64,000 nucleotides of DNA. Source: Candidatus Omnitrophota bacterium (GTDB taxonomy: Bacteria > Omnitrophota > Gorgyraeia > Aquiviventales > Aquiviventaceae). The notes under the pieces are model-generated. The model saw only the letters and a list, made by a program, of their open reading frames with translations. It ran no database searches and was not told where the DNA came from. A program made the translations under genes and the position numbers. Below are positions 2,896 to 60,842 of this stretch, in pieces; the first letter of the stretch is position 1; every line of letters starts with the position of its first letter. The stretch is from the NCBI GenBank assembly GCA_016180575.1, contig JACPAY010000005.1:3234-67233 (forward strand), given 5' to 3'.

Positions 2896-3730
2896 AAGGC
2901 GGTTAAAAACCTACGCCAGCTTCGTCAAGCTGGAGCATACGCTCTTTTCGCTCCCGCTCATCTACGCGGGCGCGCTGTTGCACCACGAGGGGCTCAGCGC
3001 GCGCCTGGCGGCCCTCATCCTGCTGGCGGCGGCCGGCGGCCGCGTGGTGGCGATGGGGCTCAACCGGCTCATCGACGCCGAGATCGACGCGCGCAACCCC
3101 CGCACGCAGCAGCGGGAGCTGGCCCGCGGCGCCATGCGGCGGGGCGAGGCGTGGGTCATCGTGGGACTGGCCGGCCTGCTCTACGCGGCGAGCGCCGCCG
3201 CCATCGCGCCCATCTGCCTGCGGCTTGCGCCGATCCCGGTCGCGCTGTTCGTCATCTACCCCTACCTGAAGCGCTTCACCGCGCTCTCGCACCTGGGCCT
3301 GGGTCTGGCCTGGTCGGTGGCGCCGGCGGCCGGCTGGCTGGCGGCCTCAGGATCGCTTGAGTGGATCAGCGAGGTGGGCTGGCTGTGGCTGTTCGCCTGG
3401 CTCTGGGTGACCGGGTTCGACGTCATCTACGCGACGATGGACGAACCGTTCGACCGCCAGGCGGGGCTCCACTCGCTGCCGGTCGAGCTGGGCAGCCGGA
3501 AGGCGCTCCAGGTCGCCGCCAACCTGCACGCGATGGCGTTCCTGTCGCTCTATATGCTCTGGCTGACGGAGTTCTACTCCCGCGCGTCGCTCGTGTGGCT
3601 GCTCGCGATCGGCGCCCTGTTCATCTGGCAGCACGCCGTCGCCGCGCGCAAGCCTGCGTTCGCGTTCTTTCAACTGAACGGGGTCATCGGCTTCCTCGTC
3701 TTCGGGTTCGTCCTCTTCGGTCTTCGCTAA
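2879..3730 (+). CDS. mqnP: UbiA-family polyprenyltransferase, probable menaquinone MqnP
   Basis: LEHTLFSLP, NRLIDAEIDARNPRT and DVIYATMD Asp-rich motifs, multi-TM. Context with ubiX/ubiD-like/mqn genes. Start codon lies inside the right arm of element B1. Confidence 0.75.
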   Translation: MVSDTGRRLKTYASFVKLEHTLFSLPLIYAGALLHHEGLSARLAALILLAAAGGRVVAMGLNRLIDAEIDARNPRTQQRELARGAMRRGEAWVIVGLAGLLYAASAAAIAPICLRLAPIPVALFVIYPYLKRFTALSHLGLGLAWSVAPAAGWLAASGSLEWISEVGWLWLFAWLWVTGFDVIYATMDEPFDRQAGLHSLPVELGSRKALQVAANLHAMAFLSLYMLWLTEFYSRASLVWLLAIGALFIWQHAVAARKPAFAFFQLNGVIGFLVFGFVLFGLR

Positions 3731-4325: not shown

Positions 4326-6083
4326 ATGAGCGATTTGCACAGTTTTCTGGCGCTGCTTGAGCGGGAAGGCCAGCTGGCGCAGGTGCGCATCGAGGTGGAC
4401 CCCGAGCTTGAGATCACCGAGATCGCCACGCGCGTCGTGAAGGAGCAGGGGCCGGCGCTCCTCTTCGAGCGCGTGCGCGGCTCCGATTTCCCTCTGGCCA
4501 TCAACATCCTGGGCAGCGCGAGGCGCATCGAGCTGGCGCTTGGCCGGCACCCGCAGCAGGTCGGCCGGGAGCTTTCGCGCCTGATGGAGGCGGCGATGCC
4601 GCCGCGCCCGAAGCGGCTGCTCGATGAGTGGCGCACCGTCGGCCGCGTCCTCGCATCGCCCCCCAAGCGCGTGCGGCGCGCGGCCTGCCAGGCCATCGAG
4701 GAGCCGCCGGACCTCTCGCGCCTGCCCATCATGAAGTGCTGGCCCAAGGACGCCGGGCGCTTCATCACCTGCGGCATGGTGCTCACCCACGACCCCGAGA
4801 CCGATACGCGCAACCTCGGCATCTACCGGATGCAGGTGGTGGGGCCCGACCAGGTGCTGATGCACTGGCAGATCCAGAAGGGCGGCGGGTTCCACTACTG
4901 GAAGGCCGAGCAGCAGGACAAGGCGCTCGCCGTCGCGGTGGTCATTGGCGGCGGTCCCATCCTGTACCTCGCGTCGGTGGCGCCGCTGCCGGAGGGGATC
5001 GACGAGATGGCCTTCGCCGGGTTCCTCGGCGGCGCGCGCGTCCCGCTGGCACTCGGGCGCACCAAGGTCACCGCGGTCCCGGCGGAGGCCGAGATCGTGC
5101 TGGAGGGGATCGTGCCGCCCGATGAGCGGTTGCCAGAAGGCCCCTTCGGGGACCACTTCGGCCACTACTCGCACCCGAAGCCGTGCCCCGTCCTCTGGGT
5201 GCAGGCGATGACCCGCCGCCCCAACGCCATCTACCTCTCCGCCGTCGTCGGCAAGCCGCCGCAGGAGGACCGGTACATCGGCGAGGCGGTCCAGGAGATG
5301 CTCCTGCCGATGATCCGGCTCATCCATCCGGAGCTGCGGGACCTCTGGGCCTACTACGAGGCGGGCTTCCACAGCCTGGCGGCGGCGTCGGTCTTCGAAC
5401 GGTTCGGCAAGGAGGGGATGAAGACGGCGCTGGGGCTCCTGGGCACCGGGCAGATGGCGCTGACGAAGTGCCTCATCCTGGTCGGCGCGGAGGTCGACGC
5501 GAGGGACGCGGGAGCGGTCCTTGGCGCCATCCGGGACCACTTCGACCCGGCCGAGGACTTCCTCTTGCTTCCCGGCGTGCCTTTTGATACGCTGGATTTC
5601 ACCAGCTTCACCCTGAACCTGGGCAGCAAGATGGTGCTGGATGCCACGCCAAACGGTACCGCGCCAGCGAGCCGCCCGCGACCGCTCGACGAGGCCCAGA
5701 TCAGGGCGCTGCACCCCCGCATCCGGCGCGCGCGGTTCCTCGAGAACGCGCTGCTCGCCGTCCAGGTCGAGGGGACGGGCCGCGAGGTCGTGGAAACACT
5801 CGTCCAGGCAACACCGCTCGCCGCCGTGAAGCTCATTGCCGCCGTCAGCCCCGACGTCGACCTGGCAGACCGCGAGAGCCTCCTGTGGGGGATCTTCAGC
5901 CGGTTCGACCCGGCGCGCGACGTGGTGTTCACGTCCACGGAGCTGCGGGGGGCGTGGCCGGTCTCGCGCGGGCGCCTGGGCATCGACGCGACGTTCAAAT
6001 CAGGATACCCCGAACCTCTCATGATGGACCCGCAGATCGTCAGGCGCGTCAGCGCGCGATGGCAGCGGTACTGGACCGCCTAG
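4326..6083 (+). CDS. UbiD-family decarboxylase (MqnM-like)
   Basis: LHSFLALLEREGQL, NLGIYRMQV and PEGPFGDHFGHY UbiD motifs. The upstream in-frame extension from 4212 overlaps ubiX and was rejected. Confidence 0.8.
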   Translation: MSDLHSFLALLEREGQLAQVRIEVDPELEITEIATRVVKEQGPALLFERVRGSDFPLAINILGSARRIELALGRHPQQVGRELSRLMEAAMPPRPKRLLDEWRTVGRVLASPPKRVRRAACQAIEEPPDLSRLPIMKCWPKDAGRFITCGMVLTHDPETDTRNLGIYRMQVVGPDQVLMHWQIQKGGGFHYWKAEQQDKALAVAVVIGGGPILYLASVAPLPEGIDEMAFAGFLGGARVPLALGRTKVTAVPAEAEIVLEGIVPPDERLPEGPFGDHFGHYSHPKPCPVLWVQAMTRRPNAIYLSAVVGKPPQEDRYIGEAVQEMLLPMIRLIHPELRDLWAYYEAGFHSLAAASVFERFGKEGMKTALGLLGTGQMALTKCLILVGAEVDARDAGAVLGAIRDHFDPAEDFLLLPGVPFDTLDFTSFTLNLGSKMVLDATPNGTAPASRPRPLDEAQIRALHPRIRRARFLENALLAVQVEGTGREVVETLVQATPLAAVKLIAAVSPDVDLADRESLLWGIFSRFDPARDVVFTSTELRGAWPVSRGRLGIDATFKSGYPEPLMMDPQIVRRVSARWQRYWTA

Positions 6084-9974: not shown

Positions 9975-10516
9975 CGAGGCGATGGGTCGTGACGACGCTG
10001 GGGAAGGACCGCCCGGGGATCGTCGCGGGGGTCACGAAGATCCTCTACCGGCTTGGCTGCAACCTCGAGGACTCGGCGATGACGCGCCTGGCCGGGGAGT
10101 TCGCCATCATGCTCATCTTCTCGGCGCCGGCCAAGGCGGCCGAGGCCGCCCTGCGGAAGGCGTTCGCGCCGCTGGAGCGGGGGCTGTCGCTGACGGTCCA
10201 TCTGAAGCCGCTGACGAAAGCGGAGATCGCTTCGCCCCGAAAGCGGGGGCGGGCCTACGTGATCTCGGTCTACGGGGCGGACCATCCCGGCATCGTGTTC
10301 CGCATCACGGACTCGCTGGCGCGCGCCGGGGTCAACATCACCGACCTGCACACGCACCGCACCGCCGGGGACGGGGCGCCGCTCTACCTGCTCCTGCTGG
10401 AAGTGGAGACCCCGCCGCGGGTCAGCGCCGCCAGGCTTGAGCGGCGCCTGCACACCCTGGCCACGACGCTGCGTGTTGAAGTCAGCTTCCGCCCCGCAGA
10501 CGCCGCCGTCCTCTAA
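9971..10516 (+). CDS. Tandem ACT-domain protein (GcvR-like)
   Basis: Two DRPGIV/DHPGIV ACT motifs. ATGA overlap with bioB. Confidence 0.65.
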   Translation: MTRRWVVTTLGKDRPGIVAGVTKILYRLGCNLEDSAMTRLAGEFAIMLIFSAPAKAAEAALRKAFAPLERGLSLTVHLKPLTKAEIASPRKRGRAYVISVYGADHPGIVFRITDSLARAGVNITDLHTHRTAGDGAPLYLLLLEVETPPRVSAARLERRLHTLATTLRVEVSFRPADAAVL

Positions 10517-10576
10517 TCGGGGACAGCCACTAATTTCCCTATGGCAGACTCAAGGAAATCAGTGGCTGTCCCCGAT
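10515..10576. repeat. Family C inverted repeat copy C1 (arm AATCGGGGACAGCCACTAATTTCC)
   Basis: 24-nt arms with one mismatch and a 14-nt loop. Overlaps the ACT-gene stop and the def start. Confidence 0.9.
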
Positions 10577-11071
10577 TTTTCCATCCGGCGGTTTCCGGAC
10601 CCCCTCCTCAAGCAGCCGACGCGCCGCGTGGACCGCGTGGACGACCGCATCCGGGCGCTGATCGACGCGATGGTGCGGACGATGCGCCATCACCCCCGCT
10701 GCGTGGGCCTGGCAGCCCCCCAGGTCGGCCGCGGCCTGCGCATCGCGGTGATGGACGCCTCCCGGCACCCCAAGGCCGCGGCGAGCCTCGGCCTGCTCGT
10801 CCTCGTCAACCCGCAGATCCTGGAGCGCGAGGGCAGCCTGCTGCAGCGGGAAGGGTGTCTCTCCGTCCCGGACTTCACCGGCAACGTCCCGCGCGCGTCG
10901 CGCGTGCGCCTGGCAACCTGGGACCGGGCGGGCTCCGCGATGGAGCTTGAGCTGGAGGGGTTCGAGGCGGTCATCGCGCAGCACGAGGTGGACCATCTCG
11001 ACGGGACGCTGTTCCTGGACCGCGTCGCCAACCTCGCCACCGATGTCTTCAAGCGGAAAACCTACCTGTGA
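10541..11071 (+). CDS. def: Peptide deformylase
   Basis: GLAAPQVG, EGCLSVP and HEVDHLDG motifs. Both candidate starts (ATG 10541, GTG 10562) lie inside element C1. Confidence 0.85.
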   Translation: MADSRKSVAVPDFSIRRFPDPLLKQPTRRVDRVDDRIRALIDAMVRTMRHHPRCVGLAAPQVGRGLRIAVMDASRHPKAAASLGLLVLVNPQILEREGSLLQREGCLSVPDFTGNVPRASRVRLATWDRAGSAMELELEGFEAVIAQHEVDHLDGTLFLDRVANLATDVFKRKTYL

Positions 11072-11080
11072 AGAAGGCGT

Positions 11081-11164
11081 GTGAGTCACAAAGTCACAAG
11101 GTCACAAAGTCACACGTGTGACCTTGTGACCGCGTGGTAGTCTCCAGTGTGTGACCCTGCGACC
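11081..11164. repeat. Family D: inverted arrays of GTCACAA(R)/(Y)TTGTGAC 8-mers, copy D1
   Basis: Four forward units, then two plus two reverse units split by a 16-nt spacer. Lies between convergent def and mqnD. Confidence 0.85.
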
Positions 11165-12766: not shown

Positions 12767-12816
12767 GAAAAAGTACCAGGTACTTTCTCCGCTTTGAGAA
12801 GTACCCGGTACTTTTT
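12767..12816. repeat. Family F: two A-like palindromes (AAAAAGTACCnGGTACTTTTT)
   Basis: gaaaaagtaccaggtactttc and gagaagtacccggtacttttt, 29 nt apart start to start, in the divergent FNR-mqnD / mutY intergenic region. Confidence 0.75.
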
Positions 12817-24148: not shown

Positions 24149-24183
24149 GTATCAGATACCAAGCCCCGTTTGGTATCTGATAC
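24149..24183. repeat. Family B inverted repeat copy B2
   Basis: gtatcagatacc aagccccgttt ggtatctgatac, in a divergent intergenic region. Confidence 0.85.
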
Positions 24184-24194
24184 AATAGGCGCCC

Positions 24195-25892
24195 ATGGAC
24201 CGGCACGAGCAGCGCGTCGTTCGCTTTCTCTCCAAGCCCTCCGCCTATCCGCATCGCGCGCCCGCCGTGGCGCGGCGGGAGACGCACGTCTCGCACGTTT
24301 TCCTGGCCGGCCCGTTCGCCTATAAGCTCAAGAAGCCGGTGAAGTTTCCGTTCCTCGATGCCTCCACGCTGGCCAGGCGCCGGCGGTTCTGCGGGCTGGA
24401 GCTCTCGCTCAACCGCCGCCTGGCGCCGGCGGTCTACCTGGGCATGGTGCCGATTGTGGAGACGCCGGCGGGGCTGCGCCTCGGTCCCTCGACTCGGCCT
24501 TCGGCCTCGCTCGGGACGTCGCCCGGACGCGACGGGGCGGGGCTCCGCGGGCACGAACGGATCATCGAGTGGGTGGTGAAGATGCGCCGCCTGCCGGAGG
24601 AGCGGATGCTGGACCAGGTGGTCGCCCGCCGGCAGCTGACCAGGGGCGACATGCTCCGCATCGCGGACCGGCTCAGCCGGTTCTTCCGGCGCGCCGCGCG
24701 GGGCCCCGCCATCGCCCGCTACGGCGCCCCGGACCAGGTGGCCGCGCTGGTCCTGGGCAACCTGGACGAGTGCCGGCCGTTCGTCGGCCGACTCTTCTCG
24801 GAGTCCGACCACCTGTTCCTCAAGGCGGCCTACCGCCAGTACCTGGCGCTCCACGAGCCGCTGCTGGCGCGGCGCGCGCGCGAGGGCCGGATCATCGATG
24901 GCCACGGCGACCTGCGGTGCGAGAACATCTGCCTGCCTGCCGCGCCGAAACGAGGAATGAAGCGTGGCGCGGCGCAGGCAGGCCTGACCAGTCCGGTCAT
25001 CTTCGACTGCGTGGAGTTTCAGCCGGCGTTCCGGTGCGGGGACATGGCCAACGATTTCAGCTTCCTCGTCATGGACCTGGAATTCCGCGGACGAGCCGAC
25101 CTGGCCGACGCCCTGGTCGCCGGGTACCGGCGCCGCCTGGGCGATGCGACCCTCGCGCAGGTCCTCCCGTTCTACAAGTGCCACCGCAGCCTCGTGCGCG
25201 GCAAGGTGCGGGCCCTGGCGTGGTCCCAGCACCCGCGCACGGCGCGGGGCCGGCGCGTGCGCGCGCTCTCCCGCCGCCACTTCCAGCTTGCGGCGCGCTA
25301 TGCACGAGCCTTCGCCCCGCCGCGGCTCGTGGCGGTCGGCGGGCTGATCGGCACCGGCAAGAGCACGCTCGCCCGCGCGCTGGCCCAGGCGCTGGGGGCC
25401 TCCTGGCTGCGCACCGACGAGATCCGGCTGCGCGAGTTCGCGCGCGCCAAGCGGCGCGGGCAGGGCTTCGCCCAAGGCCTCTACGCCCCGCACATCTCGG
25501 AGCTGGTGTACCGGCGGCTGCTCCGGCGGGCCGAGACCCTGGTGCGCGAGGGGGGCTCGGTCATCTGCGACGGGACGTTTTCGAAGGCCGCGGGGAGGGC
25601 GGCGCTGCGCGAGATCGCCAGGCGGCACGGTGGTTCGTTTCACTTCTTCGAGTGCGTGGTCCCCCGCGCGGTGGCCCTGCGCCGGGTGGCCAGGCGCTAC
25701 GCCGCGCGCGCGGATCTTTCGGAGGCGCGGCCGGAGCACTACGACCGGCTGCGGGCCGGCTTTGAGCCCCGCCCTCGGCGGGGCTGGCCGCGCCGGGACT
25801 GGACCCGGCTCTCCGACAACCGCGCGCCCCAGGCGACCGCGGCGGCCGCGCTGGCGGCGCTGCGGCGCGCATGGTCTCAATTTGGCGGGTGA
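24195..25892 (+). CDS. Bifunctional APH-like kinase domain / P-loop (AAA_33-like) ATP-binding protein
   Basis: HGDLRCENI..FDCVEF kinase motif and C-terminal GLIGTGKSTLA Walker A. Contains in-frame hairpin insert H1. The last codons and the stop come from element E1. Confidence 0.7.
   Translation: MDRHEQRVVRFLSKPSAYPHRAPAVARRETHVSHVFLAGPFAYKLKKPVKFPFLDASTLARRRRFCGLELSLNRRLAPAVYLGMVPIVETPAGLRLGPSTRPSASLGTSPGRDGAGLRGHERIIEWVVKMRRLPEERMLDQVVARRQLTRGDMLRIADRLSRFFRRAARGPAIARYGAPDQVAALVLGNLDECRPFVGRLFSESDHLFLKAAYRQYLALHEPLLARRAREGRIIDGHGDLRCENICLPAAPKRGMKRGAAQAGLTSPVIFDCVEFQPAFRCGDMANDFSFLVMDLEFRGRADLADALVAGYRRRLGDATLAQVLPFYKCHRSLVRGKVRALAWSQHPRTARGRRVRALSRRHFQLAARYARAFAPPRLVAVGGLIGTGKSTLARALAQALGASWLRTDEIRLREFARAKRRGQGFAQGLYAPHISELVYRRLLRRAETLVREGGSVICDGTFSKAAGRAALREIARRHGGSFHFFECVVPRAVALRRVARRYAARADLSEARPEHYDRLRAGFEPRPRRGWPRRDWTRLSDNRAPQATAAAALAALRRAWSQFGG
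24932..24982 (+). repeat. Family H intragenic hairpin insert H1 (51 nt, in frame)
   Basis: cctgcctgccgcgcc-16 nt-ggcgcggcgcaggcagg inside the kinase-like ORF, translated LPAAPKRGMKRGAAQAG. Confidence 0.75.
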
Positions 25893-29231: not shown

Positions 29232-29349
29232 ACTCTCGAAACGGCAAACTTCCCGCAAGGGAGGGACGCAAAGCCGCGGGTCCTGGTGCCTGGCTCTTCG
29301 CGAAGCGAAGTGCCTGGCACCGGAAGGATAGCCGGGCTACCGAAAGAGG
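29232..29349 (+). promoter_or_regulatory. c-di-GMP-I (GEMM-I) riboswitch
   Basis: ACGGCAAAC-[ttccc GCAA gggag hairpin]-GGGACGCAAAGCC-[long P2 hairpin ggtgcc..ggcacc]-AAGGATAGCCGGGCTACCGA matches the order and conserved blocks of the Vc2-type aptamer as I recall them. Ends at the ATG of the DUF948-like gene. Confidence 0.75.
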
Positions 29350-29990: not shown

Positions 29991-30053
29991 AATCGGGGAC
30001 AGCCACTAATTTCCTAGTGGTGGCCGAAGGGAAATTAGTGGCTGTCCCCGATT
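29991..30053. repeat. Family C inverted repeat copy C2
   Basis: Perfect 24-nt arms at 29991-30014 and 30030-30053. Confidence 0.9.
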
Positions 30054-47188: not shown

Positions 47189-48491
47189 GTTCGCCTTCCC
47201 GGACGGCTTCCTCTGGGGCAGCGCCACCTCCGCCCACCAGGTCGAGGGGGACAACGTCCACAGCGACTGGTGGGCGTGGGAGCAGGCCGGCCGCGTGAAG
47301 GAGCCCTCCGGGCTCGCCTGCGACCACTACCGGCGCTTCGCGCAGGATTTCGACCTCGCAGCGGAGCTGGGACACAACGCGCACCGCTTCTCGGTTGAGT
47401 GGAGCCGCCTCGAGCCCGCGGAGGGCCGGTGGGACGAGGCGGCGCTTGCGCACTACGTCGAGGTGGTGCGCGCGCTCCGCGCGCGGCGCCTGGAGCCGAT
47501 CGTGACGCTCCACCACTTCACCACCCCCCAATGGTTCGCCTTGCGGGGCGGATGGGTGCGGCCGGACTCGGTGGAGGCCTTCGCGCGGTATGTCCGCCGG
47601 GTCGCCGCGGCGCTGGGCGATTCGGTCCGGTACTGGGTCACCATCAACGAGCCGATGGTCTATGTCCGGATGCATTACATTCAGGGATTGGGCCCGCCCG
47701 GCGCCCGCGACCTCCCGCAGGCGCTCCGCGTCATCGAGCATCTCATCCGCGCCCACGCGGCCGCCTACCGCGTGCTGCACGGCGCGCGCCGCGGGCCAGG
47801 CCCGGCCCCGCAGGTCAGCGTCGCCCATCACGCCCCCGCCTTCGGGCCGTGCCGGCGGTGGTGGCCGCCGGACCGCTGGATGGCCGCGCGGACCGACCGC
47901 GTGTTCAACTGGGCGCTCCTCGAGGCGCTGACCGAGGGCCGGTGGGTCGTGCCCGGAGTGGGGAAGTGGCGCATCCCGGAGGCCGCAGCGACGCTCGACT
48001 ATGTCGGCGTGAACTTCTACGGGCGGCAGTTCATCCAGTGGGCCCCCGCGGCGGGCGCGTGGCCCGGCGCGAGCTGCGACCTGGGACACCATCCGCGGGA
48101 GGTCACCGAGCGCACCTCGTACGGCTGGGATGTGCACCCGGCCTCCTTCGTGCAGGTCCTCTCGCGCATCGGGCGGATGGGGCGGCCGATCCTCGTGACG
48201 GAAAACGGCACCTACATGCAGGACGACGCCAGGCGCTGGGACTTCATCCTGCGCCACGTGCAGGCGATGGCGCGCGCGTTCCAGCAGGGCGCGCGGATCA
48301 TCGGCTACTGCTACTGGTCGCTCCTCGACAACTTTGAGTGGGCGGATGGGTTCGGCCCGCGCTTCGGCCTGGCGGAGGTGGACTACGCGACCCAGCGGCG
48401 GACCATCCGAGACAGCGGCCGCCGGTACGCGGAGATCTGCCGCGCCAACCGCGTGGAAATCGGGGACATGGAAATCGGGGACAGCCACTAA
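47181..48491 (+). CDS. GH1 beta-glucosidase
   Basis: FLWGSATSAHQVEG, TINEP (acid/base) and VTENG (nucleophile) motifs. The last ~10 codons and the stop are encoded by element C3. Confidence 0.85.
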   Translation: MPEFAFPDGFLWGSATSAHQVEGDNVHSDWWAWEQAGRVKEPSGLACDHYRRFAQDFDLAAELGHNAHRFSVEWSRLEPAEGRWDEAALAHYVEVVRALRARRLEPIVTLHHFTTPQWFALRGGWVRPDSVEAFARYVRRVAAALGDSVRYWVTINEPMVYVRMHYIQGLGPPGARDLPQALRVIEHLIRAHAAAYRVLHGARRGPGPAPQVSVAHHAPAFGPCRRWWPPDRWMAARTDRVFNWALLEALTEGRWVVPGVGKWRIPEAAATLDYVGVNFYGRQFIQWAPAAGAWPGASCDLGHHPREVTERTSYGWDVHPASFVQVLSRIGRMGRPILVTENGTYMQDDARRWDFILRHVQAMARAFQQGARIIGYCYWSLLDNFEWADGFGPRFGLAEVDYATQRRTIRDSGRRYAEICRANRVEIGDMEIGDSH

Positions 48492-48544
48492 TTTGCGAAT
48501 GGGAACAATTGTGTCCAGGCTTAAATTAGTGGCTGTCCCCGATT
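48455..48544. repeat. Family C inverted repeat copy C3 with 15-nt tandem duplication of the left end
   Basis: ggaaatcggggacat/ggaaatcggggacagccactaattt ... aaattagtggctgtccccgatt. Confidence 0.85.
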
Positions 48545-48548
48545 GTTG

Positions 48549-49392
48549 ATGCGGGCGTTGGTGCTGGGGGCGACCGGGCATATCGGGCTGCCCCTGGGTG
48601 TTCCATGCCGCTGGCTACTATCCCCGGTTTCGAGAGCGGCGCAAGGAGGCCATCGAGCGGGGCCTCCGGTCCACGCGCCGTCTCCTCGAGCAGCTCCGGC
48701 GGATGGGCCCCGCGCGCATCGTCTTCACGAGCAGCGCAGCCACCATCCGGCGCGTGCCCGGGCGGCCGGCGACCGAAGCGGACGCCGAGCCCTGGCCGCC
48801 GGCCGAGTGGCGGCCGCTCTACGCGACGGTCAAACTCGCGATGGAGCACGAGGTGCTGGAGGCCTGCCGGGGCGGGCTGCCCGCCGTCGTGGTGAACCCC
48901 AGCCTCTGCGTCGGGGAGTACGACGCGCGGCCCTTCTCCGGCCGGGCCGTCCTGGCATTCGCCCGGCCCGGCATCCCGGTCTACGTGCGGCACACCTTCA
49001 ACGCGGTCTACACCGGCGACGTCGCCATTGGGCACCTCCGCGCGGCCGAGCGGGGGCGTCTCGGCGAGCGCTATCTCCTCGTCGGCCGCAACGTGACCCT
49101 GCGGGAGTTCGCAACGCTCGTCGCCCGGGCGGCCGACGTGTGCCCGCCGCGGTGGCGCGTCCCGTACGGCCTCGTGTGGGCCGCGGCCGTCTCGACGGAG
49201 GCCGCCGCCTGGCTGGCGCGCACCGAGCCGTTGCTGCCGCGGGGTGCTGTCCACTCGCTGCGGATGGGACAGCTGCTGGATGGGACGAAGGCGCTGCGGG
49301 AGCTCGCGCTGCCCCAGACGCCGCTTGAGGAAGCCATCCGGCGGGCGCTTGCGTGGTTTAAGTTGCTTCCTTCCGGTATCAGATACCGGTAA
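48549..49392 (+). pseudogene. NAD-dependent epimerase/dehydratase with internal deletion and frameshift
   Basis: MRALVLGATGHIG Rossmann start (frame of 48549) is joined after ~16 codons to VFHAAGYY... (frame of 48598). About 50 residues normally between these motifs are missing. Confidence 0.7.
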
Positions 49393-49427
49393 AATAAACG
49401 GGTTAGTAGGCCGGTATCTGATACCGG
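49373..49427. repeat. Family B inverted repeat copy B3
   Basis: ccggtatcagataccgg ... ccggtatctgataccgg. Encodes the last codons (GIRYR) and the stop of the epimerase pseudogene. Confidence 0.85.
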
Positions 49428-49441
49428 AACGGGAGGCGCTC

Positions 49442-55267: not shown

Positions 55268-55774
55268 ATGCTGCCATCCCCTGATGAACTGAAACGCGCG
55301 TTGGAGCAGTTGCTGCCCGGCGTCTCGCTGACGCTGGAGGGAACGGTCCTGTTCGTGGGGCCGAAGGACCTTGCCGCGGTGTGCCGCTGCCTGAAGGAGC
55401 AGGAGCGGTTCGGGCTCGACTACCTCGCGAACCTGACGGCGGTGGACTACCCGACGGAGCACCTGCCTGCCGCGCCGGAGGCGAGCACGAGTGGCGCGGC
55501 GCAGGCAGGGCGGATGGATGTGGTCTACCACCTCTATTCCATGGCGCAGAAGCACGGCCCGGTCATCCTCAAGGTGAAGCTCCCGCGGGCGAATCCGGTC
55601 GTCGCATCGGTGACCCCGATCTGGCGGGGCGCCGAGTTCCAGGAGCGCGAGGTCTATGACCTCTACGGGGTGACCTTCGAGGGGCATCCGGATCTGCGCC
55701 GCATCCTCATGTGGGACGGCTTTCAGGGCCACCCGATGCGCAAGGACTACGTGCCGGAGGATCAGGATGCTTAG
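55268..55774 (+). CDS. nuoC: NADH-quinone oxidoreductase subunit C (contains in-frame hairpin insert H2)
   Basis: LTAVDY...VVYHLYS and [22 protein letters not shown] motifs. Confidence 0.85.
55462..55509 (+). repeat. Family H intragenic hairpin insert H2 (48 nt, in frame)
   Basis: cctgcctgccgcgcc-16 nt-ggcgcggcgcaggcagg inside nuoC, translated [16 protein letters not shown]. Confidence 0.75.
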
Positions 55775-55850
55775 CGCGACGGAGCTGCTCGAGGTGAGCC
55801 TCCCCGGCCCGCCTGTCATCAGAGCCGGGGCGGGCGGGCCGCAGCCATGA
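55767..55850 (+). other. Relic or alternative nuoD 5' end (27-codon [19 protein letters not shown]...)
   Basis: Its ATG overlaps the nuoC stop. ATELLEVSL parallels [14 protein letters not shown] of the annotated nuoD. It is followed by the hairpin cggcccgcc..ggcgggccg. Confidence 0.45.
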
Positions 55851-56990: not shown

Positions 56991-57090
56991 GTCACAAAGT
57001 CACACAGAGGAGAAGCTGCACGCGGTCACAATGTCACATGGCTTCATGGCCAGTCCACCTTGTGACTTTGTGACCTTGTGACTTTGTGAC
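56991..57090. repeat. Family D copy D3
   Basis: 2+2 forward units and 4 reverse units (cttgtgactttgtgaccttgtgactttgtgac), between nuoD and nuoI. Confidence 0.85.
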
Positions 57091-59002: not shown

Positions 59003-60775
59003 ATGACATCGCAGCCTGGGGACTCTCCAGCCCGCGTCGCGGCCTCGGAGCCGGCCGCTATCGAGTGGGAGCGCAAGCCGAAGACGATCGACGCCAACCT
59101 CAAGGACTACGACGCCGCCTACAAGGGCTTCGACTGGAAATCGGTCGAGCGGGAGTTCGACTGGTCGAAGACGGGGAAGGTGAACGTGGTCCATGAGGCG
59201 GTGGACCGCCACGCCGCCTCCCCGCGCAAGGACAAGCTCGCGCTCGCCTTCACCGACTTCGCGGGCCGGGATGAGCGCTGCACCTTCCAGGACCTCAAGC
59301 GGCTCACGAGCCGCTTCGCCCACGCGCTGCGGCAGCTCGGCGTGAAGAAGGGCGACCGCGTGGGGACGTTCCTGCCGCGCACGCCCGAACTCTACATCGC
59401 GATCCTCAGCATCAACCGCATCGGCGCCATCCCCGTGCCGCTCTTCGAAGCGTTCATGGAGCAGGCGGTCGAGGACCGGCTGGGGGACAGCGAGGCGGTC
59501 GCCTGCGTCACCTCGCCCGCCCTGAAGGGCCGCATCCCGCTCAAGAAGCTGCCGAAGCTCAAGCGGCTCATCCTCGTCGGCGCCTCCGGCGCGCTCGCCC
59601 CCAACGAGGCGAGCTACGAGCAGGCCACCGCCAACGCCCCGGATTGGGTGGAGCCGGAGTGGCTCACTGTTGACGACGGCCTCGTCATCCACTACACCTC
59701 AGGCTCCACGGGAAAGTCCAAGGGGGCGCTCCACCGCCAGTACGCGATGGTCGGCCACTACCAGACGAGCAAGTGGGCGCTCGACCTGCGGGATGACGAC
59801 GTGTACTGGTGCACGGCGGATCCTGGGTGGGTGACCGGCACCTCCTACGGCATCTACGGTCCCTGGACGCTGGGGATCTCGAGCGTCGTGATCGGCGGCC
59901 GCTTCGACCCGGACCGGTGGTACGAGACCATCCAGCGCTACAAGGTCACGATGTGGTACAGCGCGCCCACCGCCTACCGCATGCTCATGTCCGCGGGCGA
60001 GGCCATCCCGAAGAAGTACGACCTCAAGAGCCTGCGCCACATCTGCAGCGTCGGCGAGCCGCTCAATCCGGAGGCGCTGAAGTGGGTCAAGAAGATCACG
60101 GGCCTGGCGCCCCATGAGACCTGGTGGATGACCGAGACCGGCATGCAGCTCATCTGCAACTATCGGAGCAAAGATTTCCCCATCGGGTGCACGGGCAAGC
60201 CGTTCCCGGGCACCTACGCGACGGTGGTGAACGACCAGGGCAGGGAGCTGCCGCCGGGCGAGCTCGGCCACCTCGTCGTCAAGCCGGGCTGGCCGTCGAT
60301 GATGAAGGAGATCTGGCGAAACCCCGTCAAGTATCAGGAGTACTTCCGCATCCCCGGCTGGTATGTGAGCGGCGACAGCGCGTACCGGGACGAGCAGGGC
60401 TACCTCTGGTACCAGGGAAGGGCGGACGACGTCATCAAGACGGCGGGCGAGCGCGTGGGGCCGTTCGAGGTCGAAAGCGCCCTCGTCGCGCACCCGGCGG
60501 TGGCCGAGGCGGGGGTGATCGGCAAGCCCGACCCGGTGCGCGGGCACATCATCAAGGCCTTCGTCTCGCTGCGCAAGGGCCACCAGCCCTCGGAGCAGCT
60601 CAAGCAGGACATCGCCGACTTCGTGAAGAACAACCTTGCGGCCCACGCCGCCCCGCGCGAGATCGCGTTCGTGGACAAGGTGCCCAAGACCCGGTCGGGG
60701 AAGATCATGCGCCGCGTCCTGCGCGCCTGGGACCTCGGCCAGCCCGTCGGCGACATCTCGACGATGGAAGAATGA
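59003..60775 (+). CDS. acs: AMP-forming acetyl-CoA synthetase family ligase
   Basis: YTSGSTGKSKG AMP motif, WWMTETG, SGDSAYRDEQGY and PKTRSGKIMRR motifs. Confidence 0.8.
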   Translation: MTSQPGDSPARVAASEPAAIEWERKPKTIDANLKDYDAAYKGFDWKSVEREFDWSKTGKVNVVHEAVDRHAASPRKDKLALAFTDFAGRDERCTFQDLKRLTSRFAHALRQLGVKKGDRVGTFLPRTPELYIAILSINRIGAIPVPLFEAFMEQAVEDRLGDSEAVACVTSPALKGRIPLKKLPKLKRLILVGASGALAPNEASYEQATANAPDWVEPEWLTVDDGLVIHYTSGSTGKSKGALHRQYAMVGHYQTSKWALDLRDDDVYWCTADPGWVTGTSYGIYGPWTLGISSVVIGGRFDPDRWYETIQRYKVTMWYSAPTAYRMLMSAGEAIPKKYDLKSLRHICSVGEPLNPEALKWVKKITGLAPHETWWMTETGMQLICNYRSKDFPIGCTGKPFPGTYATVVNDQGRELPPGELGHLVVKPGWPSMMKEIWRNPVKYQEYFRIPGWYVSGDSAYRDEQGYLWYQGRADDVIKTAGERVGPFEVESALVAHPAVAEAGVIGKPDPVRGHIIKAFVSLRKGHQPSEQLKQDIADFVKNNLAAHAAPREIAFVDKVPKTRSGKIMRRVLRAWDLGQPVGDISTMEE

Positions 60776-60799
60776 AAAACGGGACCGGGTCCCTTTTTT
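60775..60799. repeat. Family A palindrome copy A7
   Basis: aaaaacgggaccgggtccctttttt, starting at the last base of the acs TGA stop. Confidence 0.85.
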
Positions 60800-60817
60800 C
60801 CACCGTTGGCCGATCAG

Positions 60818-60842
60818 AAAAAATGGACCCGGTCCCAATTTT
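60818..60842. repeat. Family A palindrome copy A8
   Basis: aaaaaatggacccggtcccaatttt, supplying the tlpA-like start codon. Confidence 0.85.

Follow-up and report, generated by a model that had tools for sequence, protein, structure and literature searches.

A 48-nucleotide palindrome lying in frame within nuoC of a Candidatus Omnitrophota bacterium probably belongs to a family of very small mobile hairpins that recurs in distant bacteria and phages

The stretch of DNA analysed here (the window: 64,000 nucleotides (nt), positions 3,234–67,233 of contig JACPAY010000005.1 in the metagenome-assembled genome (MAG) GCA_016180575.1 of a Candidatus Omnitrophota bacterium) carries the complex I gene nuoC, and within this gene a 48-nt GC-rich palindrome that is very probably a mobile element inserted in frame. 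An earlier note on this DNA had described an in-frame hairpin of that length in nuoC, with arms of 15 and 17 nt shared, around a different loop, with a copy some 30 kb upstream. The coordinates are correct to the base, arms and loops of both copies read out exactly, and the protein reading given there matches the translation of the open reading frame (ORF); each part of the note's interpretation that could be put to a test is borne out. The features concerned are the following.

55268..55774, + strand: nuoC, encoding the 30-kDa subunit of complex I, 168 aa (PF00329, E 2e-41)
55462..55509, + strand: the palindromic element, 48 nt, which is the entire insertion (comparison of empty and filled sites with the related loci L022 and L223)
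55462..55476, + strand: left arm CCTGCCTGCCGCGCC, 15 nt, in-frame reading (H)LPAAP
55477..55492, + strand: variable loop GGAGGCGAGCACGAGT, 16 nt, in-frame reading EASTS
55493..55509, + strand: right arm GGCGCGGCGCAGGCAGG, 17 nt, with an unpaired GC at 55501–55502, in-frame reading GAAQAG
24932..24982, + strand: sister copy, 51 nt, with the same 15- and 17-nt arms and a 19-nt loop, reading (C)LPAAPKRGMKRGAAQAG
24195..25892, + strand: ORF hosting the sister copy, 565 aa, with a C-terminal AAA_33 kinase domain (Pfam AAA_33, E 1.4e-26)

The host protein is 100% identical to an NCBI entry, 'NADH-quinone oxidoreductase subunit C' of a Candidatus Omnitrophica MAG, and its structural model matches complex I chains in Foldseek (E 8e-12). 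Within nuoC the element supplies the third base of codon 65, codons 66–80 and the first two bases of codon 81. In L022, the closest sequenced relative (85.9% nucleotide identity), the site is empty, reading GAGCA/GCGG where the window reads GAGCA-(48 nt)-GCGG or, with longer flanks, TCGGAGCA/GCGGATGGAC against ACGGAGCA-(48 nt)-GCGGATGGAT. Since the empty site aligns flush to both flanks, the insertion comprises exactly 55462–55509. The insertion point splits, after its second base, the CAG codon that precedes Arg in the RMDVVY strand.

As RNA, the element folds at −31.8 kcal/mol (z −3.2; none of 200 shuffles folds equally well) into a 7-bp outer stem, the 2-nt GC bulge at 55501–55502 and a 9-bp inner stem that includes a closing G–U pair; as DNA, the fold has −19.1 kcal/mol. 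Its ends are perfect 9-bp terminal inverted repeats within the two arms. The sister copy, placed between HGDLRCENI and VIFDCVEF of its host ORF, folds at −30.3 kcal/mol (z −3.8), and neither copy contains a stop codon in any of the six frames. Both begin on the third codon base of a forward-strand ORF and hence both read LPAAP...GAAQAG, with unrelated loops of 16 and 19 nt between the arms; indeed, the nuoC loop GGAGGCGAGCACGAGT is unlike that of every other copy we retrieved, except the orthologous nuoC copy of L024 (15/16 identical). The core pattern CCTGCCTGC-N(3-33)-GCAGGCAGG occurs twice in the window, at these two copies, against 0.00 occurrences expected from 100 dinucleotide-preserving shuffles. 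Two further stretches, 25402–25464 and 55799–55849, were considered as additional copies and rejected as loose matches that do not form the family hairpin. An Rfam scan at gathering thresholds found no family at the element, its sole match in the window being a riboswitch elsewhere, and relaxing the cut-off to E values of up to 10 yielded only generic microRNA-hairpin models far under their cut-offs.

How unusual the inserted segment is for NuoC becomes apparent from its homologues. Among the 120 closest (63–100% identity), 71 have only 3–4 residues (PPD, PxEQ) between VDY and the Arg, and the remaining 49 hold 9–43 residues between VDY and the next strand. In solved complex I structures this spacing is about 5 residues, so that the 8–15 residues assumed as normal in the earlier note are too many. 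A phmmer comparison with solved 30-kDa, Nqo5 and NdhJ chains opens a 15-residue gap exactly over the insert, which, together with the 71 short homologues and the empty site of L022, confirms that the segment is an insertion and not ancestral. We also looked for conservation of the segment at the protein level in homologues that lack the arms and found none. In an AlphaFold2 model (mean predicted local distance difference test score (pLDDT) 80), residues 62–81 are predicted as coil between strands 52–61 and 82–91, with pLDDT <50 at residues 71–77. This predicted coil and the tolerance of homologues for up to 43 residues are in line with the proposed location in a loop, and since natural homologues hold that many residues there, the turn is arguably exposed in the assembled complex. 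A second short type of insert occurs at the same turn, PDPA(A/S/G)GG(A/T)G, encoded by ~21 nt (P0003, P0019, P0021, P0058, P0063 and other homologues). Its version at ~1690 in L025, CCCCGCCAGCGGAGGGGCAGG, is a small GC palindrome ending in CAGG, and the type represents either a separate hairpin family or what is left, after decay, of the present CCTGCC family.

Evidence for recent gain or loss comes from a quartet of nuoC genes. The filled gene of the window and the empty one of L022 form one pair (85.9% identical), the filled gene of L024 and the empty one of L223 form another (93.3%), the two pairs are ~78.6% identical to each other, and this grouping has 100% four-point bootstrap support. 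The inserts of the window and L024 occupy the same nucleotide position and are identical at 46/48 sites; the two genes, by comparison, differ at 21% of their sites overall and at 44% of their third positions. Hence, there were either at least two precise losses of the element or at least two gains of it at this one position of nuoC. In JGI sample 3300009444, the filled nuoC of L024 is accompanied by an empty one, L023. A neighbour-joining tree of the 120 NuoC proteins requires at least 35 changes of insert state; this tree is poorly resolved, and filled and empty states are interleaved throughout. Furthermore, L026 carries a second copy of 42 nt at another nuoC site, GGAGGC(...)CGGCGCG, in the same phase and differing at a single nt from the copy located ~150 nt further downstream in that gene, and L222, which is 92.6% identical to L026, is empty at that site (GGACGC/TGGCGCG). 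This second copy is thus a fresh copy-and-paste event that included the loop and left no duplication. A target-site duplication is absent from all three comparisons of empty and filled sites (GAGCA/GCGG, GAACA/ACGG and GGACGC/TGGCGCG), and different lineages have used at least two nucleotide positions within the VDY turn in addition to the third nuoC site. Altogether, filled and empty alleles in 93%-identical genes and the fresh second copy in nuoC show recent mobility. Beside this, at ~780 in L222, a 12-nt deletion relative to L026, CCGGCAGAACAC, abuts the 5' end of the element, removing PAEH and leaving VDY-LPAPP, which suggests hairpin-associated deletions at element borders.

The element is a member of a family with the termini CCTGCCTGC...GCAGGCAGG, an inner stem that varies between subfamilies, an unpaired GC in one arm and a free apical loop, ranging from 39 to 66 nt and most commonly 48 nt long. 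The claimed identity with the 24932 element, based on the same arms, holds well beyond this pair, as these arms also occur in many unrelated genes elsewhere. Searches of a genome collection and of metagenomes demanded exact arms, with a loop of 5–35 nt allowed in the genome collection. Exact arms were found in 20 stretches of this collection of species-representative genomes, in MAGs labelled Omnitrophota, Planctomycetota/Planctomycetales, Verrucomicrobia, Victivallales, Methylomirabilota, Deltaproteobacteria and Bacillota, and in one cultured gammaproteobacterium, Thiorhodospira sibirica ATCC 700588, in which the copy directly follows the stop codon of an ORF read from its translation as BchM-like. 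Among 81 exact-arm copies from metagenomes, 43 are 48 nt long and 74 have a length divisible by three. The 64-kb window has two exact-arm copies, and large metagenome contigs have one or two each. GC-rich copies inside AT-rich hosts (L015, L187) point to a foreign origin, and copies nested in the loops of other copies were seen at L002, L003, L005, L007 and L020. An identical loop occurs at two different sites of L146 and several multi-copy subfamilies share their loop; otherwise, loops are nearly all distinct. In the L146 case, the same 48-nt element lies at 4757–4804 and 5419–5466, within 660 nt; one copy is in frame in the gene for ribosomal protein L3 and the other stands beside a segment coding for KTVGAGV, between the L3 and EF-Tu genes. 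At four contig ends of MAG CAZYTX01 (L006, L009, L011 and L018), a 39-nt copy with the loop AAGCCAA is part of a multi-copy repeat beside a second hairpin, ~100 nt upstream of an ORF that begins MTDITDLQMNTIKFF and is cut by the contig end. This repeat may be the end of an insertion sequence (IS).

Phage genomes hold close relatives. In viral contigs, a 9-nt core pattern gave 122 matches, 82 of them divisible by three, in a set that includes chance matches. The modal viral forms are 30 and 33 nt long and keep the asymmetric GC bulge, and according to PHROGs, copies lie inside phage genes for the major head protease, tape-measure, portal, tail-completion and head-maturation protease proteins. 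The 30-nt viral form CCTGCCTGCCGAAGCCTCGGCGCAGGCAGG translates to LPAEASAQAG, which is exactly the insert found at the nuoC site of the homologues P0009 and P0014. In a pair of phage major head-protease genes, L047 is filled (GEGPT-GLPAATLAAQAG-RIRVMG) and L037 is empty (GDGPPN-RIRVMG); the two also share a 21-nt perfect or near-perfect palindrome reading YLPARQAG or DLPDRQAG. BLAST searches against cultured phages and plasmids gave only marginal partial matches (E ≥0.02), and since these cultured replicons lack the element, earlier surveys of cultured genomes may have missed the family. In our literature search, the arm sequences were absent from the papers found, and queries for Omnitrophota repeats and in-frame palindromes led only to work on Rickettsia palindromic elements (RPEs), repetitive extragenic palindromes (REPs) and MITEs (transposable elements of the miniature inverted-repeat kind). 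The CCTGCCTGC...GCAGGCAGG family thus appears to be large and undescribed.

Such a distribution bears on the idea that the segment is a lineage-specific loop extension of NuoC, evolved for protein function, with an incidental palindrome. The length of this site does vary from 3 to 43 residues across Omnitrophota-like NuoC proteins, and insertions in surface loops can acquire functions. Yet the same 32 arm nucleotides recur in unrelated genes, in intergenic DNA and in MAGs labelled with other phyla, and near-identically in phage contigs, and they are read in different frames. In addition, both differences between the inserts of the window and L024 are non-synonymous, with none synonymous and 0/16 third positions changed, the opposite of what constraint on the protein predicts; the closest relatives have no insert; and the model assigns the segment low confidence and no secondary structure. 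This explanation is already contradicted by the data, and we regard it as highly unlikely.

The copies are compatible with coding in several respects. After removal of duplicates, 77/86 distinct exact-arm copies have a length divisible by three; 32 lie confidently in frame within coding sequence and 20 more possibly do. The combination of orientation and phase that reads LPAAP...GAAQAG accounts for 19 of the 32 confidently coding copies, as against ~5 expected for one of six options, and within the viral set, the small members with the GC bulge rarely contain a stop codon, whichever of the six frames is read. In-frame copies are confirmed by Pfam in ribosomal protein L3 (L146) and, in an AT-rich genome, in HisH (L187). 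Judged from motifs in the translations, five loci of four lineages have a copy just before the PCHRV motif of Ogt, a copy at 1554–1601 of L158 splits REGG/KTVGAGV in the C-terminal turn of EF-Tu, and RadA-, Maf- and CinA-like ORFs carry in-frame copies as well. In a Verrucomicrobia MAG (L002), a single helicase-like ORF of 1252 aa contains three in-frame members, at 4705–4764 (60 nt), 5698–5724 (27 nt) and 5770–5799 (30 nt).

That lengths are divisible by three, that the window copies have no stops, that one phase prevails and that take-off and landing codons are lacking leads us to infer translation of the nuoC element, and on these frame statistics it rather likely forms a disordered loop of 16 residues. 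Alternatively, the hairpin might be removed from the mRNA, or bypassed by ribosomes as in T4 gene 60, to give a normal short protein. A very stable structure lying exactly at the insertion boundaries would fit such a scenario, as would the conserved arms, which are expected if a structure is needed to neutralise the insertion. However, neither removal nor bypass would constrain length or stops, whereas nearly all copies are multiples of three, stops are rare in the small members and one orientation and phase dominates among the coding copies. Moreover, no matching take-off and landing codons are present (CAC precedes the element and GGG CGG follows it) and no Rfam family matches. Hence, we consider this explanation very unlikely. 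The same statistics are biological in nature and thereby also speak against an artefact of assembly or sequencing, for instance a chimeric hairpin, for which there is nothing specific beyond the source being a MAG. An identical protein is present in a separate assembly from Logan (SRR12113384), a JGI sample contains an orthologous copy that differs by 2 substitutions, and the family occurs in many independent projects and a cultured isolate; the probability of an artefact is thus close to nil.

What is conserved among in-frame copies is not the peptide. In the four Ogt lineages, the flanks are 60–72% identical and the loops match at 8–13/16 positions, and the arms at 32/32; that four copies survive in this state at such divergence is far beyond neutral expectation, even given that exact arms were used to find them. 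Since identical arm bases are read in different frames in different genes, it is the nucleic acid that is constrained, not the peptide. In one subfamily, the inner stem has undergone a compensatory change from GCCGCGCC/GGCGCGGC to GCCCCGCC/GGCGGGGC. In a composite repeat of ~130 nt with a 47-nt member (L152, L155, L163, L203 and L216, at contig ends), the flanks are identical and the loop differs at 9/15 positions. Thus, stems and termini matter and the loop does not. In the viral set, inner-stem pairing hardly separates from shuffles (3.77 against 3.47 pairs), as short GC-rich inserts pair by chance and the set includes chance matches. Upstream of the 47-nt member stand further hairpins, including another member of the family. 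Two origins of the loop were considered and rejected: mutagenesis of the kind produced by diversity-generating retroelements, as the changes are not adenine-specific and a relaxed constraint on the apical loop explains the differences in the composite repeat, and derivation from the target, as empty sites lack such a 16-nt segment and L146 has the same loop at different sites.

Conservation of this kind would also fit a different explanation, namely that the hairpin is kept for a function in the host as DNA or RNA, like an exapted REP that processes or stabilises mRNA, pauses ribosomes or binds a protein, the peptide being a by-product. Besides the Ogt arms, which are conserved to the nucleotide as genes and loops drift, the nuoC inserts are almost identical in genes with 78.6% identity overall and 56% at third positions, the RNA hairpin is very stable, and known REPs are credited with roles in mRNA stabilisation and termination (PMC3733652). 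At nuoC, however, its presence is patchy: 71/120 homologues do without it and the nearest relatives of filled alleles are empty, and therefore nuoC has no conserved requirement for the insert. The host genes and positions are mutually unrelated, copies also occur in phage structural genes, and so strong a bias in frame and length speaks for selection on translation instead of a regulatory site. A host function as the primary reason for the presence of the hairpin therefore seems unlikely to us.

We thus favour, as probable, that 55462–55509 is a copy of a very small, non-autonomous, GC-rich palindromic mobile family that is translated and is moved in trans as a single-stranded DNA hairpin. As seen from the empty and filled sites, the element entered nuoC between the second and third base of a codon without a target-site duplication. 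The NuoC frame stays open owing to a length that is a multiple of three, the lack of stops and a Pro/Ala/Gly/Gln-rich peptide in this orientation and phase, and the element would most likely be read through as a disordered 16-residue extension of a β-hairpin turn. Selection would purge copies that land in other places, phases or lengths, and such removal would explain the repeated hits on the same permissive turn in related lineages. Movement probably takes place as a single-stranded DNA hairpin, handled in trans by an enzyme specific for structure and sequence; this type of enzyme is suggested by the lack of a duplication, the seamless gain and loss, the conserved asymmetric bulge and the nested copies. 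An enzyme of the HUH/Y1 type, as in IS200/IS605 and the REP-associated tyrosine transposases (RAYTs), would both excise and insert seamlessly, and we put it forward as a tentative candidate whose involvement is somewhat doubtful. Phages, which carry close relatives in their structural genes, would be a plausible vehicle between hosts.

Several points weigh against this interpretation. A crude HUH...Y regular expression applied to 1.25 Mb and then to 1.66 Mb of sequence, with ~220 copies, gave three loose hits and no credible Y1 transposase. Among 1377 clustered ORFs of the loci, no recurrent mobile gene stands beside the copies, only syntenic orthologues; about 100 flanks show no apparent shared target motif; and no GTAG or CGTC tag is found in or beside the window copies or the other copies listed. 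The argument for translation is drawn entirely from reading-frame statistics. Perfect arms in old copies are unexplained by a purely selfish, immobile copy and could reflect a function at the level of the host. Finally, the searches with exact arms see no copies with decayed arms, and the phylum labels of the MAGs are those of their submitters.

In comparison with known repeat systems, the closest parallel in behaviour is found in the RPEs (Ogata et al. 2000), which, in the parts of the literature drawn on here, are ~100–150 bp long, carry family-specific conserved peptides and are described in Rickettsia, with related small repeats in Wolbachia (PMC10969869, PMC3733652). As portrayed there, they likewise are palindromes that lie in frame in unrelated, often essential genes, contribute a short fold-compatible peptide and represent selfish DNA tolerated by translation. 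The present family differs from RPEs thus described in its size (39–66 nt, mostly 48, instead of ~100–150 bp), in that only its stems are constant, and in its occurrence with identical arms in MAGs labelled with several phyla and with near-identical arms in phage contigs, RPEs being placed in Rickettsia by these sources. It also has no detectable sequence relation to the small RPE classes tagged with GTAG/CGTC.

Like our element, REPs are GC-rich imperfect palindromes of short length whose stem is conserved and whose loop varies; they are sometimes nested or clustered and occasionally lie inside ORFs; intragenic GTAG/CGTC REPs are frequent in the verrucomicrobium Opitutus terrae and in R. conorii (PMC3733652, PMC10969869). 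Their hallmark is a conserved GTAG (or CGTC) tetranucleotide at one end (PMC3733652), in place of which this family has the ends CCTGCCTGC and GCAGGCAGG. A hairpin-specific HUH tyrosine transposase that works on single-stranded DNA is believed to mobilise REPs, a mechanism that for our family is suggested by indirect signs, and neither the crude regular expression nor the clustering of neighbours revealed a RAYT gene in the 1.66 Mb of window and loci. While REPs are mainly extragenic, situated downstream of genes, present in many copies and ~20–40 nt long, both window copies and at least 32/86 distinct copies are intragenic, and the 48 nt of the nuoC element exceed the usual REP range. REPINs, in the portion of the literature considered, are described as vertically inherited within a lineage, unlike these arms, which are identical across distant taxa.

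Elements of the IS200/IS605 group have separate hairpins at their left and right ends and insert beside a fixed target of 4–5 nt. They share with our family the seamless insertion and excision without target duplication and an imperfect hairpin whose asymmetry marks the strand; here, in contrast, a single hairpin makes up the entire element, the flanks show no evident target motif and no TnpA was found near the copies. MITEs have terminal inverted repeats, as does this element, which differs from them by the absence of target-site duplications in its three comparisons of empty and filled sites. Inteins are self-splicing domains of >100 residues with conserved splicing motifs; an intein or mini-intein was rejected for the insert, which has 16 residues, is of low complexity and varies between copies. 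The coding palindromes and clusters of GC-rich hairpins in mitochondrial genes, for instance of Nematomorpha, are likewise inverted repeats in protein-coding sequence that are read through in frame, yet they are organellar, up to 284 bp long and have both arms coding within one genome (PMC6649704), whereas the present 48-nt element is bacterial and phage-borne and shared between genomes. Altogether, the insertion of palindromes in frame is a known phenomenon, of which this family looks like an undescribed variant with unusual properties.

It is also conceivable, though we would not expect it, that the family forms a mobile DNA class of its own, suited to coding sequence: single hairpins with lengths in multiples of three, whose stems stay identical to the base across phyla and during long residence at a site as the apical loop varies freely, which enter and exit one codon position seamlessly and travel in phage structural genes, and whose enzyme would be distinct from RAYTs and from known IS transposases, or which are retained because hosts make use of the hairpin. 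If this were true, the same 48-nt copy at the same nuoC nucleotide in two clades with empty sisters would reflect site-directed homing or precise enzymatic excision and not chance.

Beyond this family, the genome is rich in several unrelated hairpin repeats. A different family with the arms AATCGGGGACAGCCACTAATTTCC/GGAAATTAGTGGCTGTCCCCGATT, AT-richer than the genome, has three copies, two of them at 10515–10577 and 29991–30053 with arms that are 96–100% complementary, and one at 48473–48544, where a longer palindrome of 36 nt reaches 83%. A third family, based on CCGGTATCAGATACCGG, forms perfect arms at 2842–2895, 24149–24183 and 49371–49429, and one of these hairpins is situated just upstream of the sister copy's host ORF. 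Further inverted-repeat families (GTCACAAAGTCACA, AAAAACGGGACCGGGTCCC and AAAAAGTACCAGGTACTT) are found at 11093–11136, 56991–57074, 60775–60842 and 12768–12816, with one copy of GTCACAAAGTCACA between nuoD and the next nuo gene. The riboswitch detected by Rfam is an aptamer of the c-di-GMP-I-GGC type (RF03167) at 29234–29345 (62.9 bits against a gathering threshold of 59; E 1.8e-12), ~650 nt upstream of a AATCGGGG hairpin. At the nuoC–nuoD junction (55767–55850), an ATG at 55767 overlaps the nuoC stop and opens a frame that closes at the TGA at 55848, the current nuoD start being the ATG at 55847. The motif ELLEVSL is present twice at this junction, with an imperfect GC-rich hairpin at ~55801–55840 between the two copies, and the ORF starting at 55767 looks like a relic of the original nuoD start. 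In L025, nuoD begins at the nuoC stop, and L022 and L023 have two small inserted ORFs at the junction, both on the reverse strand.

In summary, the palindromes described here add a clear bacterial example from outside Rickettsia in which selfish DNA resides in essential genes and is apparently translated there: NuoC of complex I in the window and, in related data, EF-Tu, ribosomal protein L3, Ogt, HisH and RadA. The combination of absent target duplication, asymmetric bulge and frozen stems offers a concrete handle for finding the responsible enzyme. For the annotation and phylogenetics of uncultured lineages, it implies that indels in marker proteins may be mobile hairpins that toggle between genes as similar as 93%. 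A tiny family in multiples of three that is shared by distant bacteria and phages amounts to a natural experiment on which protein loops tolerate insertions, and may be a source of new loop sequence.

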